IMG/VR virus record: IMGVR_UViG_3300034141_000061
Span: 1 to 39,190 of that record
Strand: one strand, 5' to 3'
Source: a virus
Length of the DNA: 39,190 nucleotides
Shown: one piece after another, positions 16,804 through 32,547 of the stretch
Layout: each line of letters opens with the position of its first letter
Numbering within the stretch: the stretch's first letter is position 1
The notes under the pieces: generated by a model
What the model was told of the DNA's origin: nothing
The model's database searches: none
Seen by the model: only the letters and a program-made list of their open reading frames with translations
Program-made: the position numbers and the translations under genes

Positions 16804-17279
16804 CCGCCCTGTTCGCCTGGCTGCGCCTTCACCGCCTCGGCACCACGCTGGTGCTGATCATGGCCGTGTGCGGGGCCTTCTATGTCCAGTGGCAGGTGAA
16901 TGCGACCGGCCGGGCGAAGGCCGAGGCGGACCGCAAGAGCCTGATCAGCGCGGCCGACGGCATCTGCGAGGCGATCCACAGCCCGTTCCGCCCGGTCGGC
17001 GTGAAGCGCGAGCAGTGGGGCCTGTCCTGCCTGACCGAAGCGCGGCGGGTCGGAAAGCTGGAGAGCGACCTGAACGCCGGGACGGCCGAGGCCCTGCTGC
17101 AGGGTCTGGACCAGCGGATGGGGAAAGAGGCGGCCGACGCCCTGTTGGCGGCGGCCTATGCGAAGCGTGCGGCTGATACCGCCAGCAGATTGGAGAACGC
17201 CAATGCGGCGGTTGAAGGCGATAAGGCGACCGGCGCTTGGGCTGGCGCTGTCAATGATGCTGCAGGCCTGCGCAACTGA
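16800..17279 (+). CDS. i-spanin (Rz-like)
   Basis: 159 aa from ATG 16800 (ATGA overlap). It has an N-terminal TM segment LGTTLVLIMAVCGAFYV followed by a charged helical region, and contains the start of the o-spanin gene. Confidence 0.6.
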   Translation: MTALFAWLRLHRLGTTLVLIMAVCGAFYVQWQVNATGRAKAEADRKSLISAADGICEAIHSPFRPVGVKREQWGLSCLTEARRVGKLESDLNAGTAEALLQGLDQRMGKEAADALLAAAYAKRAADTASRLENANAAVEGDKATGAWAGAVNDAAGLRN

Positions 17280-17517
17280 TCCGGCCCCGGCTCCGGTCGA
17301 GCCCGTGGTGGTGGTGCGGACGGTGAAGGAGACGCCGCCGGCCGAGCTGACGCGCTGTCCGACCCTGCCGCGGGGTCTGCCGACCGAAGGGCAGGCGCAG
17401 ATCCCCGAGACCTGGCGCGCCGGGATCGGCCGCCTCGCCGTCAGCCACGGCGCCGTCGTCGACCAGCTGCGGCGGTTGATCGCGTGGAATACGGGCGAGG
17501 CCTGTCCGGCCGCCTAG
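17203..17517 (+). CDS. o-spanin lipoprotein (Rz1-like), overlapped architecture
   Basis: 104 aa from ATG 17203 with GGAGAA upstream. The signal peptide has lipobox LSMMLQAC and is followed by Pro-rich sequence. The gene starts 77 nt inside the 3' end of the i-spanin gene in another frame. Confidence 0.65.
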   Translation: MRRLKAIRRPALGLALSMMLQACATDPAPAPVEPVVVVRTVKETPPAELTRCPTLPRGLPTEGQAQIPETWRAGIGRLAVSHGAVVDQLRRLIAWNTGEACPAA

Positions 17518-17533
17518 CGGGACTAGGCCCTCT

Positions 17534-18475
17534 CTAGCTGAAGGTGGCCGGCCGGTGGCCTTTCAGGTCATAGACTGCCACGGCATCCGTGAAGCTGTCG
17601 GGCACGTCCTCCAAGGGCTCAACGTCCGATCGCGGTATGACGTCGCCCACGGTTTCCATCTGCTGCTCCAGCGGCGTCAGGTCTTTCTCACCGCGCCCCA
17701 GGACGATGAGCTTGTTGCCCGGCTCGCCGCCCCACGCCAGAAACGCCAGCCGCTCCGCTCCGTCGTAGCGGACCCGGATCGTCGGCCCCTCTCTCCGCCG
17801 GAACTTGAGCGGCGCCTTGGCCATGGCCGGATTGTTGCCCATGACCTGAACCCGGGTCCAGCCGCGCCCCAGGCGAAGGTTGCTCTGCAGCCGATCAGCA
17901 AGCACCAGCTCAATCTCGGCGTCCCGATAGCGGATCGCCACCCGCGCAGGGCCAACGGCCTCCGCGCGCTTCAGCAGATGTTCCACCCACGGTGTCGCCG
18001 CGGCTGCCAGATGGGCAACGACATGCTCGACCCGAGGGTCTTCCGGTTCGTGACTTGGCTGGTCCTGTCCGGTCTGGCGCGCGATCAACCCCTGTCGGCT
18101 GAACGTGACCAGTAATGCGATTTCCGCCAGATCCTTGAGGCTGGAAATCTTGCTGAGGAAATCCCACAGCTCCGTCGAATAGCGGCTCTGGGCCACCGCC
18201 TTCTGCTGGACGACGCCGATGTAGATGTCTGGCAGGTCGAACAGCAGCGGCAGGATGTTTGACCCCGACCGCGGCGGCGCGAGGCGCGCGGAGGCGCGTT
18301 TCCAATTTGCTGGGTCGGCGGATCGAGTGGCGCGCAGGTTGCCCCGCGCAATCAAAATCTGATGCGCGATGTCTGAGAGGATCTCCTCCAGCCCTTCGAT
18401 CATAGGGGTTAGCCGTGCCCAAGGGACGACGTCGGGGTCGTCAAGGATCAGGTCGAGCGTGTCATTCGGGGCCAT
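17534..18475 (-). CDS. Hypothetical protein (313 aa), largest gene of the attP-proximal accessory cassette
   Basis: Long ORF with protein-like composition and GAGG 8 nt upstream of the ATG. It is convergent with the lysis cassette. No motif recognised. A/T-ending codons are more frequent than in neighbouring genes. Confidence 0.7.
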   Translation of the reverse strand: MAPNDTLDLILDDPDVVPWARLTPMIEGLEEILSDIAHQILIARGNLRATRSADPANWKRASARLAPPRSGSNILPLLFDLPDIYIGVVQQKAVAQSRYSTELWDFLSKISSLKDLAEIALLVTFSRQGLIARQTGQDQPSHEPEDPRVEHVVAHLAAAATPWVEHLLKRAEAVGPARVAIRYRDAEIELVLADRLQSNLRLGRGWTRVQVMGNNPAMAKAPLKFRRREGPTIRVRYDGAERLAFLAWGGEPGNKLIVLGRGEKDLTPLEQQMETVGDVIPRSDVEPLEDVPDSFTDAVAVYDLKGHRPATFS

Positions 18476-18526
18476 TGAACAACCTCGCGTCCAAAAGCCA
18501 GCACGGTCAAGTCCGACGCCGGAAGG

Positions 18527-18793
18527 TCAGCCGCCCCACTCGGCCCTGTCGTTGACCGGCGGCCCCCGAAGCTCCAGCTCCATCGCGCCCCCGCACCGCC
18601 GGGCGCGTCGGTCCAGCCGGGGGCGCTCGATGCACTTCAGCAGCGGCTCGACTTGGTTCAGCGGCACGTCACCGAGCTTGGCCAGGATCACCGACCGCAG
18701 CACATAGCGATGGCCGCCGCAGGTCAGACAGACCGCGGCAATCACCGTTTCAGGGCGCAGCTGCGACGGGGTCATTCCGAACCGTTCGGGCAT
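18527..18793 (-). CDS. Hypothetical 88-aa protein with four Cys (C22,C25,C54,C67; possible zinc binding)
   Basis: The ORF starts 5 nt after the stop of the upstream 72-aa gene, suggesting translational coupling. It carries a CLTCGGH ... KC ... RRC pattern. Confidence 0.6.
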   Translation of the reverse strand: MPERFGMTPSQLRPETVIAAVCLTCGGHRYVLRSVILAKLGDVPLNQVEPLLKCIERPRLDRRARRCGGAMELELRGPPVNDRAEWGG

Positions 18794-18798
18794 GGCGA

Positions 18799-19017
18799 TC
18801 AGTGGGAGCTGGCTGTTTCCAGCCGCCGCAGCCGCTCGCGCTGGATCCGGGCCACAGCCTGTTCCAGCGCGCGAGGGTCGCGGGCGTGGATTTCGCGCAG
18901 CAGGGCCTGAACGCCGGCGAGCGGATCGGCCTGCCCCGCGAGCAGCCGTGCGGCCGCTTCCGTCAGACTTTCGGCCGCGGACGCATCGCCGGCGGCCGCC
19001 GTCATGTTGTCCGGCAT
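18799..19017 (-). CDS. Hypothetical 72-aa helical protein, first gene of the accessory cassette
   Basis: ATG 19017 is preceded by GGAGAA. The longer track start 19125 lies in Arg/Gly-rich sequence. Ala/Leu/Glu/Arg-rich. Confidence 0.55.
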   Translation of the reverse strand: MPDNMTAAAGDASAAESLTEAAARLLAGQADPLAGVQALLREIHARDPRALEQAVARIQRERLRRLETASSH

Positions 19018-19128
19018 CTGCTGTTCTCCGCGCTCTCGATTGTGGGCGCGAAGTCGTGCGGCGCCGGCCCCTCCTCGGTCAAGAACGAAGTGAGAACACC
19101 CGCCGCGCCAACGGCGCAAAGTCACACA

Positions 19129-19149
19129 GGTGACTTCAGCGAAGTCACC
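19129..19149. promoter_or_regulatory. Perfect 9-bp inverted repeat GGTGACTTC-agc-GAAGTCACC (protein-binding site candidate: Int arm site or operator of the cassette)
   Basis: Read directly. It lies between the cassette start and the attP core. The same 8-9-mer recurs at 19346-19354, 23940-23948 (minus), 32497-32505 and 32511-32519. Confidence 0.5.
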
Positions 19150-19207
19150 CGGTTCACGCTGCGTTCCGGCGAGCGTTGAAAAACCATCAATGAAAAGAAC
19201 GGGGTGG

Positions 19208-19252
19208 TGGTACGTCCTCTCGGGCTCGAACCGAGGACCCTCTGATTAAAAG
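19208..19252 (-). other. attP core: 3' half of a tRNA gene (not a complete tRNA)
   Basis: The reverse complement reads CTTTTAA-TCAGA-GGGTC-CTCGG-TTCGAGC-CCGAG-AGGACGT-A-CCA. These parts are the anticodon loop, 3' anticodon stem, variable loop, T arm, acceptor 3' strand and CCA. The expected 5' anticodon-stem partner, D arm and 5' acceptor strand are absent upstream. The integrase gene is adjacent. Confidence 0.7.
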
Positions 19253-19353
19253 TTCTGAGCGGTTGGAGTGCCTAGCCCGCCAGCGCGGCCTTTGAAGGTG
19301 ATCGACGCGGTTAAGGGTGGCCTGAAAAGGGCGCTGTTGGGCGCGCAAGTCAC

Positions 19354-20769
19354 CTAAGTGCCGAGGGCCTTCACCCAGCCCGTCGCGTCCATGTGCGCGC
19401 CCATCTTCCTCGCCCCTGACCGGCCGACGGCGCGGCCGCCCGTGCCGTAGTGTTTCGACCATACCGCCAGCACCCGCGCGTGATCCTTGTGCAGGCTGCG
19501 CTTGCAGACTTCGGCGGCGGTCATGTCGGCGTCGTGCGCCAAGGTGATGAAGGTGTCGCGGGTGTCCATGAAGTCGAAGGCGCCGTTGAATTCCGAGCCG
19601 TCGACGCCGTCGCCGGTCAGCAGGCTGGGGACGGTCAGCGCCGCGTGTTCGCGCACCGCGCGCCAAGCGTCGTTGAAGGCGCGGTTCGTCCAGACCCCCG
19701 AGCGGTTGCGCGGGCTGGCCTCGCGCACGATCAGGTGCGTCGGCGTGACCTTGGCGTCGGCGTTGCGGGCGATGATCCGTTCGATACAGGCCTCGCCGAT
19801 CGTCAGCAGGGGGATTTCCGAGCTGGCCACGCCGGTCTTGGCGCGGCTGACGCGGGTGATCGTCCAGCGGACCACGCCGTGTTCGTCGGGCTGACGCGCG
19901 AGACGGCGCCAGTCGAGGGCCAGCAGGTCCTTCAGCGACCAGCCGAGGTCGAGCGCCAGCAGCACGGCGTCGCCGATGCTGGGATAGCCCAGCCGGGTGG
20001 CGGAGGCGACGATGGCGGCCAGCTCCTCCTGCGTCCCGACGCGGATCTTGCCGAGCGGCGGCGCGCGGTCGATCAGCTCGACCGGGTTGGCGGACATGGC
20101 GCGGATGCGCTTTTTCTTCCAGCACCAGCTGATGAAGACCGAGGCGACGGACAGCACGCCATAGGCCATGTCGTGGCCGCGGTTCGCTAGCAGCCAGCGA
20201 TAGGCGTCATCGAGCGGAAATTCCGCGTCCTCTTCCTCAGGCACCGCCAGCGTCTCGATCGGCAAGGCGCGCACTGCGGCCAGCTTGTCGGGGTCCGCGC
20301 TCTCGACCAGGGCGACCTGCAGCACATGGATTTTCGACCGGTAGTCGGCGGCCGTTGAAGGGGCCAGACCGCCCTGCCCGCGCGCGAGCGTGAAGCGCGG
20401 GCCCTGCAGCCACTCGTCCACCAGCGCCCCGATAGACCGCTTGTCGGCGCGCTGGGCGGGCGTCAGGGCCGTTCCCTCGACCGCACCGGGCGGAGCGAAG
20501 GCGGCCATGTCGGCGGGGACGGGCGACCCCTTCAGGGTCCATGCGGACACGGCGGCGTTGATCGCCTTGCACCGCTCGATCGCGTCGCCTTGGGAGAGCC
20601 AGAGTTTGTCGCCCCGCGCGGTGACGGTCGCGAAGTCGAACGGCCGCCAGCCTTGGCGGCGGCGCGTCGGGCTGGGCAGCCAACGCGGGCGGCCGTCGCG
20701 CCAGTCGAAACCGGCGGGCAGGACACCATGCGGGCGCTGGCGGCGTTTGGTGGGCTGGCGCTTGCTCAC
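19354..20769 (-). CDS. int: Tyrosine-type site-specific integrase
   Basis: 471 aa from GTG 20769 with AGGAGA 6 nt upstream; the ATG 20853 start would overlap the upstream gene. The C-terminal DTRDTFITLA ... HKDHARVLAVWSKHYG resembles the box II region (R ... H ... Y) of tyrosine recombinases. It is adjacent to the tRNA-derived attP. Confidence 0.8.
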   Translation of the reverse strand: MSKRQPTKRRQRPHGVLPAGFDWRDGRPRWLPSPTRRRQGWRPFDFATVTARGDKLWLSQGDAIERCKAINAAVSAWTLKGSPVPADMAAFAPPGAVEGTALTPAQRADKRSIGALVDEWLQGPRFTLARGQGGLAPSTAADYRSKIHVLQVALVESADPDKLAAVRALPIETLAVPEEEDAEFPLDDAYRWLLANRGHDMAYGVLSVASVFISWCWKKKRIRAMSANPVELIDRAPPLGKIRVGTQEELAAIVASATRLGYPSIGDAVLLALDLGWSLKDLLALDWRRLARQPDEHGVVRWTITRVSRAKTGVASSEIPLLTIGEACIERIIARNADAKVTPTHLIVREASPRNRSGVWTNRAFNDAWRAVREHAALTVPSLLTGDGVDGSEFNGAFDFMDTRDTFITLAHDADMTAAEVCKRSLHKDHARVLAVWSKHYGTGGRAVGRSGARKMGAHMDATGWVKALGT

Positions 20770-26227: not shown

Positions 26228-26931
26228 CCGCGCTGGCCCTCGCTCGCATCCCTGCCCTGCCGCCGGTCACGCCGCGCGTCGGTTCGCCCCGCCGGGCCGC
26301 GATCCTGACCGCGCTGGCCGCGGCTGCCGTGCGCGACGGCAACCTGAAGGCGGTGCTGGTGCTGGCCCGCACCGGGCGGCCCCGCAGCCTGTTCACTTGC
26401 GCCGGCGGTTTCCGCTGGCTGGCGATGGCGGGGCTGAAGGCGGTCTATCCCGACGCCAACGACGCGGCCCTGAGGGCTGCGCTGGGCTGCCGGCCGTCAC
26501 GGGACAACCGGCCGCGCGCGGCGCTGCGCGAAATCTGGCCGGATGACGCGGTCGAGGCTGTGGCGCGGGCCGTGGTGGAGAACGAGGACGCCCAGCTGAC
26601 GGCGAGCTGGGTCTGGCCCGAGGCCTGCGCCATCGCCGCGGCCCACACCGGCGCCCCGGTCCAGGCGGTGCAGACGCCGCCGGGCACGCGGGGATGCCAG
26701 CCGCACGCGATCAGCAGCGCGCGGAAGCTGGCCGTGTACCTGACGATGACCGAGGGCGACGTGAACGCCACGGCCATGGCGGCCGCGACCGGCTTGGACA
26801 AGTCGACGGTGCGGCACGCCGTCGACCAGCTGGCCGACCGGCGGGACGACGATCCACAGCTGGACGAGACGCTGGAGACTCTGACGACGCAGCTGCGCCA
26901 GCGGCTGGACGAGGATCTGGGCCAGTGGTGA
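26224..26931 (+). CDS. Replication-initiation candidate with DnaA domain IV-like C-terminal HTH
   Basis: 235 aa. PHAISSARKLAVYLTMTEGDVNATAMAAATGLDKSTVRHAVDQLADRRDDDPQLDETLETL runs parallel to the E. coli DnaA C-terminus ([47 protein letters not shown]...). It heads the replication module. Confidence 0.55.
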   Translation: MTALALARIPALPPVTPRVGSPRRAAILTALAAAAVRDGNLKAVLVLARTGRPRSLFTCAGGFRWLAMAGLKAVYPDANDAALRAALGCRPSRDNRPRAALREIWPDDAVEAVARAVVENEDAQLTASWVWPEACAIAAAHTGAPVQAVQTPPGTRGCQPHAISSARKLAVYLTMTEGDVNATAMAAATGLDKSTVRHAVDQLADRRDDDPQLDETLETLTTQLRQRLDEDLGQW

Positions 26932-27845
26932 CCGATCCGTTCATTATCGACGGGCCGTGCCTTTGGTCCTTCAGCGGCGGCCGGACGTCGGCTTACATGC
27001 TGTGGCGCGCGCTTCAGGCCTATGGGGGCCAGCTTCCCAGCGATCATGTCGTCGCCTTTGCGAACACTGGGCGCGAGCACGACGAAACCCTGAAGTTCGT
27101 GGATCGCTGCGCAACCCACTTCGGCATCAACGTTGTTTGGCTGGAAGCGGTCACCCGCCACAATCAGCGCGCCTCGTCCGGTCACCGCATCGTTTCGTTC
27201 GAAACAGCATCGCGCGCCGGCGAGCCGTTCGAGCAGATGATCCAGAAGTACGGGATCCCGAACAAGTCGTTCCTCCACTGCACGCGAGAGCTCAAGGCGA
27301 ACGCGATCAAGTCCTATCTACAGGATGGCCTTGGTTGGCTGCCGAACTCCTACAAGACCCTCATAGGCATCCGCGCGGATGAAGCTGACCGGGCAACGAA
27401 TGGTGCGGCGGGCGTAGAATACCCGCTGGTTAGAGCTTGGGTTCGGAAAGCGGATGTCTACAGCTTCTGGAAACGGCAGCCCTTCGATCTTTATATCCCC
27501 GAGGAGCTTGGCAACTGCCTCGACTGTCACAAGAAGTCGTTCCGCAAGCTGCTGACGATCGCCGCGCGTCAGCCAGAAGTGTTCGACTGGAGCCGGCGAA
27601 TGGAGGCCCAGTACGGGCTTGTCGGAGCCGAATTCCGAAAGCTTGAGCGCCCGGCCGCTGGCTATCGTCGCGTGTTCTTCCGCAATGGCATGTCGGCTGA
27701 CGACATTGTCGCCCGTGCCAAGCTTCCCTTCGAACCTTTCGTCGACGGGCGGCAGGCCTACGACCCTGATATGGACAGCAGCGGCGGCGCTTGCGGGGAA
27801 GAGAGCTGCGAGATTGACGATCTTTTCTCAGGGGCAGCGGCATGA
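26928..27845 (+). CDS. PAPS-reductase-family (PP-loop ATP pyrophosphatase) protein
   Basis: About 305 aa from GTG 26928 (or GTG 26925). PP-loop motif SFSGGRTS at about 26967-26990. C-terminal Cys pairs are NCLDCHKKS and CGEESC. A/T-ending codons are visibly more frequent than in flanking genes. Confidence 0.7.
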   Translation: MTDPFIIDGPCLWSFSGGRTSAYMLWRALQAYGGQLPSDHVVAFANTGREHDETLKFVDRCATHFGINVVWLEAVTRHNQRASSGHRIVSFETASRAGEPFEQMIQKYGIPNKSFLHCTRELKANAIKSYLQDGLGWLPNSYKTLIGIRADEADRATNGAAGVEYPLVRAWVRKADVYSFWKRQPFDLYIPEELGNCLDCHKKSFRKLLTIAARQPEVFDWSRRMEAQYGLVGAEFRKLERPAAGYRRVFFRNGMSADDIVARAKLPFEPFVDGRQAYDPDMDSSGGACGEESCEIDDLFSGAAA

Positions 27846-32004: not shown

Positions 32005-32547
32005 ATGAAATCCCCCGTCGCGCCTGCCCTGCCGGGCCTCGCACCGGCGCCCAAGAGAGGGCCGGGCCGTCCGAAAGGATCCGCGAACAAGCGCTCGGGC
32101 GACCTGCAGCGCTACATCGAGAGCACCTATGGCGGGCTGACGCCGGGCCAGCAGTCCGCGGCGGTCGGCCTGGTGACGGCGGCCGAGCTGCGCGCCGACG
32201 GCGGGGACCTGCTGGTGGCCATGGCGCGGAAGGCCGCCCGGCTGGCCACGCTGATCGGGTGCGAGGGCAAGGAGGCGTGGCTGCTGATGCAGCGGGAGCG
32301 GGCCGACCTGCTGCCCTACATCCACCAGAAGCTGCCGCCGAAGGCCGAGGCCGGCCAGGGCGACACGCCGACCCATACGTTCTACGCCGTGCCGATCGAG
32401 GAGACGACGGCGGCCGGCGGCGGCGCGCAGCTGGGCGAGTGGGACACGCCCGCCGACCTCATTGAATATCAAGGGGTTAGCACCGAGCCCGGCGAGCAAG
32501 TCACCCAACCGAAGTCACCTGACGACAACGAACCTGTTGAACCGTAA
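32005..32547 (+). CDS. Terminase small subunit candidate
   Basis: 180 aa immediately upstream of terL and downstream of the iteron field. The N-terminus is basic (KRGPGRPKGSANKRSGDL). Position-based call. Confidence 0.45.
   Translation: MKSPVAPALPGLAPAPKRGPGRPKGSANKRSGDLQRYIESTYGGLTPGQQSAAVGLVTAAELRADGGDLLVAMARKAARLATLIGCEGKEAWLLMQRERADLLPYIHQKLPPKAEAGQGDTPTHTFYAVPIEETTAAGGGAQLGEWDTPADLIEYQGVSTEPGEQVTQPKSPDDNEPVEP

Follow-up and report, generated by a model that had tools for sequence, protein, structure and literature searches.

A composite gene cassette with a putative cargo gene beside attP in a temperate phage targeting tRNA-Lys(UUU)

We examined positions 1 to 39,190 of the IMG/VR virus record IMGVR_UViG_3300034141_000061 (hereafter the window, the whole stretch of 39,190 nucleotides that was analysed), and specifically a cassette of three open reading frames (ORFs) on its minus strand, encoding proteins of 72, 88 and 313 amino acids (aa), that lies between the lysis genes and the phage attachment site, attP. 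Our preferred explanation, to which we assign as a whole a rough probability of 0.5, is that the cassette would be a composite, att-adjacent transcription unit in a cargo hot spot, with the 313-aa gene as the cargo. The temperate phage would integrate into tRNA-Lys(UUU), and the minus strand, read from the att core, would present in order a P' arm with three copies of GTGACTT, the 72-aa gene, the 88-aa Zn-ribbon-like gene and the 313-aa cargo gene. This last gene would be the true insert, in the interval that separates the Zn-ribbon gene from the last gene of the lysis operon. We regard the anatomy of the region as highly probable. The features on which it rests are as follows.

17158..17517, plus strand: o-spanin-like gene, the last of the late/lysis operon; lipobox LQAC, weak Rz-like PHROG matches
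17534..18475, minus strand: 313-aa gene; ORF of a rare orphan family of about 300-320 aa
18476..18526, minus strand: 51-nt spacer; GAGG at 18483-18486, 7 nt before the ATG, and TTGACC at 18505-18510
18527..18793, minus strand: 88-aa gene; ORF, product basic (isoelectric point, pI, 9.2) with four Cys
18799..19017, minus strand: 72-aa gene; ORF, product Ala-rich and near-neutral (pI 6.05)
19119..19148, no strand assigned: three GTGACTT/AAGTCAC copies, including a palindrome noted earlier; candidate integrase arm-type sites, P' arm
19208..19253, minus strand: attP core, identical to the 3' 46 nt of tRNA-Lys(UUU)
19347..19353, minus strand: single GTGACTT of the P arm (integrase side), 94-100 nt from the core, with a counterpart at an unchanged offset in the related contig L005 and at roughly 100 nt in the related contig L021
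19354..20769, minus strand: integrase of 471 aa, divergent tyrosine-recombinase type; phrog_1 match, E 1e-11

The window corresponds to a phage of about 39.2 kb that was recovered in near-identical form from several metagenomes, and independent gene calling on four metagenomic contigs with this DNA returned all three cassette genes. The basic layout described in the initial annotation was recovered without change: three co-oriented minus-strand ORFs between the lysis genes and attP, convergent with a late operon that ends at 17517, 16 nt from the stop of the 313-aa gene, and an 88-aa protein with Cys at 22, 25, 54 and 67. The gaps of 5 nt and 51 nt, and the TTGACC and GAGG motifs before the 313-aa gene, can be read directly from the sequence (on the plus strand, as GGTCAA at 18505-18510 and CCTC at 18483-18486). 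Upstream of the 72-aa gene are a GGAG at 19026-19029, 8 nt before the ATG, and a further TTGACC at 19077-19082. The stop of the 72-aa gene lies 5 nt before the start of the 88-aa gene, and translational coupling of the two is possible.

GC content by codon position, lowest at the second position (GC2), supports the called frames, with GC2 and third-position (GC3) values of 0.45/0.80, 0.52/0.85 and 0.56/0.81 across the three ORFs; a 108-aa extension of the first ORF has a GC3 of 0.58, and we therefore do not consider it coding. The cassette had also been described as visibly richer in A/T-ending codons than the flanking structural genes. This remark is only weakly right: GC3 in the cassette (0.80-0.85; 0.80 in the 313-aa gene) is below that of most structural genes (0.85-0.93), but the difference is modest. 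We took the slightly lower value as possibly favouring a foreign origin.

The integration site was defined by a junction contig, L004, whose agreement with the window breaks off exactly at 19253. On L004 a complete tRNA-Lys(UUU), its 3' 46 nt being identical to window 19253..19208, leads into the co-oriented cassette, which matches that of the window at 100% identity. An attP at 19208..19252 had been predicted from the window itself; the junction confirms that prediction and extends it slightly, to 19208..19253. Additionally, the Logan contig L003 (39,075 nt) terminates within the att core, at window 19235, and the same core is present in five IMG/VR stretches. It follows from the junction that in a lysogen the rebuilt tRNA-Lys would stand 190 nt upstream of the 72-aa gene and in the same orientation, and the cassette, located at the prophage end, is directed inward and opposed to the late operon. 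Free and integrated forms of the phage coexist in the sampled communities, as seen from the junction contig (L004 1-165, joining window 19253). In a related prophage, a further integrase gene, unrelated to the first, terminates a short way upstream of the tRNA-Lys (L019 1-200); tandem elements thus share one tRNA.

The integrase of the window phage had no match in Pfam or NCBIfam and was detected by phrog_1 of the PHROG collection alone; a homologue that is 68% identical adjoins the att core in L021. Another relative, L005, matches the window at 100% identity through the cassette, from 19237 downward; on the integrase side (L005 1-130 against window 19237-19360) its arm is diverged but keeps the GTGACTT offset. 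An identical cassette beside a diverged P arm points to module exchange at the att core, making L005 a mosaic relative.

The heptamer GTGACTT is over-represented. There are eight copies in the window against 2.08 expected, and four of the eight flank the att core. In the window, L020 and L022, whose surrounding sequences otherwise differ, about 61 nt separate the tRNA end from a triplet on its 3' side of the form GTGACTT-N5-AAGTCAC-N4-GTGACTT. On the P arm, a single copy recurs at about 95-103 nt in three cases, the window, L005 and L021, despite diverged surroundings. In the related prophage L018, insertion of an IS1595-family transposase (409-2310) has separated the P' arm sites from the att core and so displaced the triplet, which still stands directly 5' of the Zn-ribbon gene. 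Judged by this spacing, the copies are most likely integrase arm-type sites, a putative assignment. Two more copies, 14 nt apart on the minus strand at 32498-32518, are far from attP and could be a second binding site for the same protein, or chance.

This arrangement changes the meaning of the palindrome that had been placed at 19129..19149 and viewed as an upstream element of the cassette. A 9-bp inverted repeat is present (GGTGACTTC/GAAGTCACC), but it is not perfect in the sense claimed, as its 3-nt centre is not itself palindromic. Because the arm triplet is kept at a fixed offset in relatives with differing sequence, and accompanies the att core in phages that have no such cassette, we assign the palindrome to attP rather than to a cassette operator. 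A terminator or riboswitch at this position was also considered and dropped, as folding of the leader RNA gave no significant structure (z = -1.7); Rfam had no match within 17300-19600.

To place the cassette among related phages, we drew on several searches. A DNA search and tblastn of GenBank phages and PLSDB plasmids gave no match, and the 975-aa virion protein matched only distant phages by tblastn, so that no annotated close relative was available. A search of IMG/VR with the att core did yield related phages and prophages, among which L021/L022 have 60-73% protein identity to the window.

In related phages, the interval between the Zn-ribbon gene and the o-spanin gene is occupied in very different ways. 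The o-spanin gene is the conserved boundary on the lysis side, with homologues 57-69% identical in L010, L013, L018 and L022. The slot is empty in L020 and L018, where the Zn-ribbon and o-spanin genes overlap tail to tail; it holds a gene for a 331-aa membrane protein in L029, a 186-aa and a 77-aa gene in L028, and five other genes in L022. Genes of the 313 family occupy it in the window and in L010, and in L013/L014 a family member is present in the opposite orientation. The suggestion in the initial annotation that the cassette lies in a cargo position is thus well founded, the same slot being empty or differently filled in related phages, and gene content identifies the slot beside att as a cargo hot spot. 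With the slot empty or variably filled in its relatives, the 313-aa gene would be a single-gene cargo in this hot spot.

The 88-aa gene, on the other hand, is probably a gene of the phage lineage rather than a partner of the 313-aa gene. Past the P' arm sites, the phage genes of L020, L018, L022 and L029 begin with one for a Zn-ribbon protein of about 120 aa (CxxC-x27-CxxC), and none of these phages carries a 313-family gene. The lineage Zn-ribbon genes run in the direction of the tRNA and converge on the o-spanin gene. The 88-aa gene is the positional counterpart, in the same orientation, of the Zn-ribbon genes in L020, L018, L022, L029 and L010; in the window the 72-aa gene intervenes between it and the arm sites. 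By blastp against a five-sequence database, without composition correction, the 88-aa protein aligned with the L020 Zn-ribbon protein at 28% identity over 72 aa (E 1.5e-4; second match 0.03). The 88-aa and Zn-ribbon proteins share TPxxLxPxxV, the first CxxC and A[KR]L[AG]DxP[LF], and the third Cys is replaced in the 88-aa protein. On these sequence comparisons it is likely, if well short of certain, that the 88-aa protein is a diverged, shortened copy of the lineage Zn-ribbon protein. A search of 5.8 billion clusters returned only the 88-aa protein itself. For the 72-aa protein, too, the database search returned only the query; its single homologue is a 61-aa protein at the same position in L010 (40% over 48 aa, E 1e-6).

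The placement of the two small genes raises the question of whether they serve integration or regulation, with the 88-aa protein, alone or together with the 72-aa protein, acting as a recombination directionality factor or an Ogr/Com-like regulator at attP, and the 313-aa gene as a passenger. Such a candidate role for the 88-aa/Zn-ribbon gene is possible: in all close relatives whose sequence extends far enough, the gene immediately after the P' arm sites is a Zn-ribbon gene, and there is precedent for the placement in P2, where the late genes and attP flank ogr, and in Mu, where com-mom lies at the genome end. Pfam, with its Ogr_Delta profile, however, matched neither the 88-aa protein nor the lineage Zn-ribbon proteins beyond generic zinc-ribbon noise, and no similarity in sequence to Ogr_Delta, Com or a Xis family was detected. 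Furthermore, the homologous pair in L010 is not beside a recognisable att or integrase, and one Cys of the CxxC...CxxC motif typical of the family is missing from the 88-aa protein. As an account of the whole cassette we consider this quite unlikely.

We next considered the proposal, made in the initial annotation, that the genes form a toxin/antitoxin (TA)-like or anti-phage module, which in its full form would be one co-adapted, three-component system regulated through the palindrome. The tight spacing, the co-orientation and the 5-nt gap would fit such a system. So would the recurrence in the distantly related phage L010, at 31-40% identity, of the order 72-like, Cys-rich, 313-like: there the genes encode a 61-aa protein, a 124-aa CxxC...CxxxC protein, a 54-aa protein and a 317-aa homologue, and converge on an o-spanin gene 57% identical to that of the window.

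To evaluate co-occurrence, contexts were recovered for eleven members of the 313 family. Members in L009, L010, L013/L014 and L015 lie near the lysis genes of related phages, and those in L006, L012 and L016 are on short contigs. Elsewhere the family member stands alone downstream of a glutaminase gene (L001), is solitary in a 3.7-Mb chromosome (L011), or is beside host AraC and TonB-receptor genes (L017). In Brevundimonas denitrificans (L007/L008) it lies between COQ9 and purK, with unrelated flanking ORFs of 286 aa and 144 aa. Searched by tblastn and with hidden Markov models (HMMs) in all six frames, these contexts contained no homologue of the 72-aa or 88-aa protein outside the window-phage contigs and L010, and only L010 keeps the window gene order. 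In L013 a 119-aa Zn-ribbon gene converges on the 313 homologue rather than lying upstream of it, and the lineage Zn-ribbon genes occur without a 313-family gene in the four relatives named above. The palindrome is kept as part of attP in phages without the cassette, and no TA or defence model in Pfam, NCBIfam, PHROG or PADLOC was matched by the three genes. The trio is therefore largely without co-conservation, and a single three-gene system is very unlikely. The 313 family is autonomous and rare.

Membrane proteins encoded beside homologues (286 aa in L007, 208 aa in L013, 180 aa in L010) were considered as a possible conserved partner and set aside, as they are not homologous to one another. 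A reading of the ORF after the L001 homologue as an Abi_2 fragment had no Pfam support. A protein of about 231 aa adjoins two family members in differing orientations (L009 7-369, L012 158-853; 34% identity over 118 aa, E 6e-10). Pfam, NCBIfam and PHROG gave it no family assignment; it may be a recurrent neighbour of the 313 family.

That the three proteins have no recognisable domain, as had been stated at the outset, agrees with our searches of Pfam, PHROGs, NCBIfam, PADLOC and PDB sequences, none of which any of them matched. For the 313-aa protein we extended the search considerably. A word-indexed search of 5.8 billion clusters returned the protein itself and one 73%-identical protein, and an exhaustive HMMER scan of 1.84 billion representatives identified 18 family proteins of about 300-320 aa, aligning end to end at 27-36% identity, in clusters of 1-3 members each. 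The sole NCBI entry of the family is a hypothetical protein of B. denitrificans, the only species found by a genome scan, and scans of IMG/VR and JGI metagenome contigs with three family sub-alignments found no relatives. Pfam, PHROGs and NCBIfam returned nothing for any of the 19 members, and neither the PADLOC-DB 2.0 profiles nor the Pfam DUF6575 model matched any of the 19 at E <= 1.

The family is nonetheless well conserved along its length. G71, S72, A171 and R227 are near-invariant, and an N-terminal MAxND, W19 and a PLEDVP loop are also conserved; the conserved MAxND fixes the start codon of the 313-aa gene. The alignment contains no catalytic-looking motif. The ratio of nonsynonymous to synonymous substitution (dN/dS) against the 73%-identical homologue is 0.12, and the gene is under purifying selection. 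These data bear on the possibility that the cassette is functionless, a decaying or selfish filler in a recombination-prone slot. The extreme rarity of the family, with its clusters of 1-3 members, would be compatible with decay, as would an 88-aa protein that has a degenerate Cys motif and lacks database homologues. Yet the dN/dS value, the conservation of the 313-aa protein along its full length among 18 diverged family members and its confidently predicted fold argue against this, as do the 100% identity of the cassette in several metagenomes and a mosaic relative and the coding-type pattern of GC at the three codon positions in all three ORFs. We consider a functionless cassette extremely unlikely.

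Profile and structure searches of the kind suggested in the initial annotation gave no confident known fold or domain for the 313-aa protein. No transmembrane segment was predicted in it, and we take it to be soluble. An AlphaFold2 (AF2) model built with the family alignment (mean predicted local distance difference test, pLDDT, 79.7; predicted template-modelling score, pTM, 0.64) suggests an N-terminal alpha/beta domain and a C-terminal beta-barrel that is weakly OB-like. Foldseek gave no significant match in the PDB; the best PDB matches were all OB-fold domains (PriB, RPA, SSB and the LysRS N-domain), aligned to the C-terminal ~100 residues with E 0.07-0.4, probability up to 0.93 and a TM-score of 0.3-0.47 relative to the target. 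The family profile matched the RPA14 OB subunit weakly (E 0.2), and PDB sequence searches with that profile and both small proteins gave nothing meaningful. In BFVD, the model matched only uncharacterised phage proteins (E ~1e-3, TM ~0.3). A viral DUF6575 protein was among the best BFVD matches, near full length, with E 5e-3, probability 0.89, a TM-score of 0.28 and a root-mean-square deviation of 10.5; with no match to the Pfam DUF6575 model, this likeness is a lead only.

In our preferred explanation, in which the 313-aa gene is cargo of the hot spot, its product would be cytoplasmic and act alone. A soluble protein with an OB-like barrel and no catalytic signature suggests a binder, and the barrel would contact nucleic acid or protein. 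Expression in the lysogen would come from tRNA read-through or from a weak promoter of its own: the position of the gene against the late operon and behind the tRNA suggests lysogen expression, and because the unit is opposed to the late operon its expression could be independent of the lytic genes. The protein would benefit the lysogen, most plausibly by interfering with superinfecting phages, and a sporadic, autonomous distribution fits an accessory or immunity-type gene. We treat the anti-phage role itself as a tentative proposal, possible rather than probable.

Two observations on the surroundings of the unit are relevant to its transcription. In L020 a strong intrinsic terminator (AAAAGCCCGCTACGGCGGGCTTTTT, at 280-310) follows the tRNA and precedes the arm sites, at a place where the window phage has no more than a T-rich run; read-through from the tRNA into the cassette is therefore more plausible in the window phage. 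At the other end, the 16 nt between the convergent o-spanin and 313-aa stops (17518-17533) contain no detected terminator-like structure, so that transcripts of the late operon and of the cassette could extend into each other in antisense.

The main rival for the function of the 313-aa protein is that of a lytic-cycle accessory: a protein binding single-stranded DNA or RNA, a counter-defence protein, or a lysis or release factor. Members of the family are repeatedly found beside the lysis cassettes of related phages (L009, L010, L013/L014, L015), and the arrangement in L013 favours this reading, as in L013/L014 the homologue directly follows, in their orientation, the genes for an endolysin (75% identical), an o-spanin and a 208-aa membrane protein. 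The OB-like predicted fold, as in SSB, PriB and RPA, and the lack of a terminator between the 313-aa gene and the convergent late operon would also be in keeping with a lytic role. The family gene is, however, transcribed against the late operon in the window, L009, L010 and L015, solitary chromosomal copies have no phage genes nearby (L001, L011, L017), and close phage relatives lack the gene, which indicates that it is dispensable for the lytic cycle. On balance a lytic-cycle role appears rather unlikely.

Several results weigh against the explanation that we prefer, in one or another of its parts. Profile comparison relates the 88-aa protein to the Zn-ribbon family only weakly, with E 0.2 by HMM and E 0.0025 at 12% probability by hhalign. 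The alternative slot cargo of the relatives matched nothing in PADLOC or Pfam and included no known defence gene, so that the location argues for cargo and not for defence. A scan of 17300-19500 for consensus sigma-70 promoters and intrinsic terminators found neither, and the homologue in L013/L014, oriented with the lysis genes, need not be lysogen-specific. The likeness of the modelled C-terminus to OB folds is below significance, and residues 1-200, modelled separately by AF2 (pLDDT 76.6), had no structural neighbour in the PDB (best E 0.58); the binding mechanism is accordingly a guess.

We also outline two extensions of the preferred explanation, in which the 313-aa gene is hot-spot cargo. 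In the first, the family would be an undescribed, single-protein superinfection-exclusion or abortive factor that combines a novel fold at the N-terminus with an OB-like domain for sensing or binding, exchanged as att cargo among high-GC alphaproteobacterial temperate phages and occasionally fixed in chromosomes; taken in full, this is doubtful. The second, more speculative, is that the OB-like domain might act on tRNA, given that its weak structural neighbours include LysRS anticodon-binding domains and that the phage integrates in tRNA-Lys.

Elsewhere in the window, a 306-aa gene at 26925-27845 has a GC3 of 0.74 and a faint PAPS_reduct match, and lies in the stretch of lowest GC (0.60; minimum at 27001-27600). 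This region is probably another foreign acquisition.

The more solid gain from this work is anatomical: attP, the tRNA-Lys target and the architecture of the arm sites could be defined from sequence alone. The apparent trio resolves into one cargo gene, one small gene conserved in the lineage and one gene specific to two phages, and the cassette should not be counted as a three-component system in defence-island screens. Should the 313-aa protein have a role in the lysogen, the accessory or immunity repertoire of prophages would be enlarged by a new, very rare family of single genes whose fold is unassigned. In that case, the interval between the att-proximal Zn-ribbon gene and the spanins would also be defined as a usable cargo hot spot in poorly studied, high-GC temperate phages.

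Comparison with known systems helps to place these elements. The 88-aa gene resembles P2 ogr and Mu com in being a short gene for a Cys protein, located in the interval from the late genes to attP with an accessory gene downstream; there is no sequence similarity to Ogr or Com, and the Cys spacing is CxxC-x27-CxxC in the lineage family against C22xxC25...C54...C67 in the 88-aa protein. For the 313-aa protein, the best structural matches are to OB-fold proteins (PriB, SSB, RPA and the anticodon-binding domains of class IIb aminoacyl-tRNA synthetases) and involve the C-terminal ~100 residues, but at E >= 0.07, without a common sequence motif, and with ~200 N-terminal residues that have no counterpart. 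DUF6575 figures in a list of recently discovered E. coli domains for defence against phages (PMC9519451); the likeness to such proteins is the near full-length structural match in BFVD, set against its low TM-score and the lack of a Pfam or PADLOC match.

As one example of prophage-mediated defence, genes 43 and 44 of the Gordonia phage CarolAnn encode a membrane protein and a DUF4747 protein and are co-transcribed with the repressor (PMC6426606). The window cassette is similar in being a small, hard-to-recognise gene set outside the structural and lytic operons that is proposed to act from the prophage. It differs in lying at the att end, far from the repressor, in its soluble products, and in being known from sequence.

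The closest parallel is with the cargo hot spots of P2-like and P4-like phages, which hold anti-phage systems (PMC9122126). Shared with these are a fixed position near att, conserved bounds, a slot that is empty or holds unrelated genes in either orientation, and a GC3 slightly below that of the core genes. Unlike them, no slot cargo in the lineage described here matches a known defence model, so that defence content is assumed, and the lineage is high in GC, probably has Caulobacterales hosts and is without a close GenBank relative. Prophage cargo at an att-proximal hot spot is a well-known kind of element (PMC9122126, PMC6426606); the 313 family that occupies this one is undescribed and very rare.

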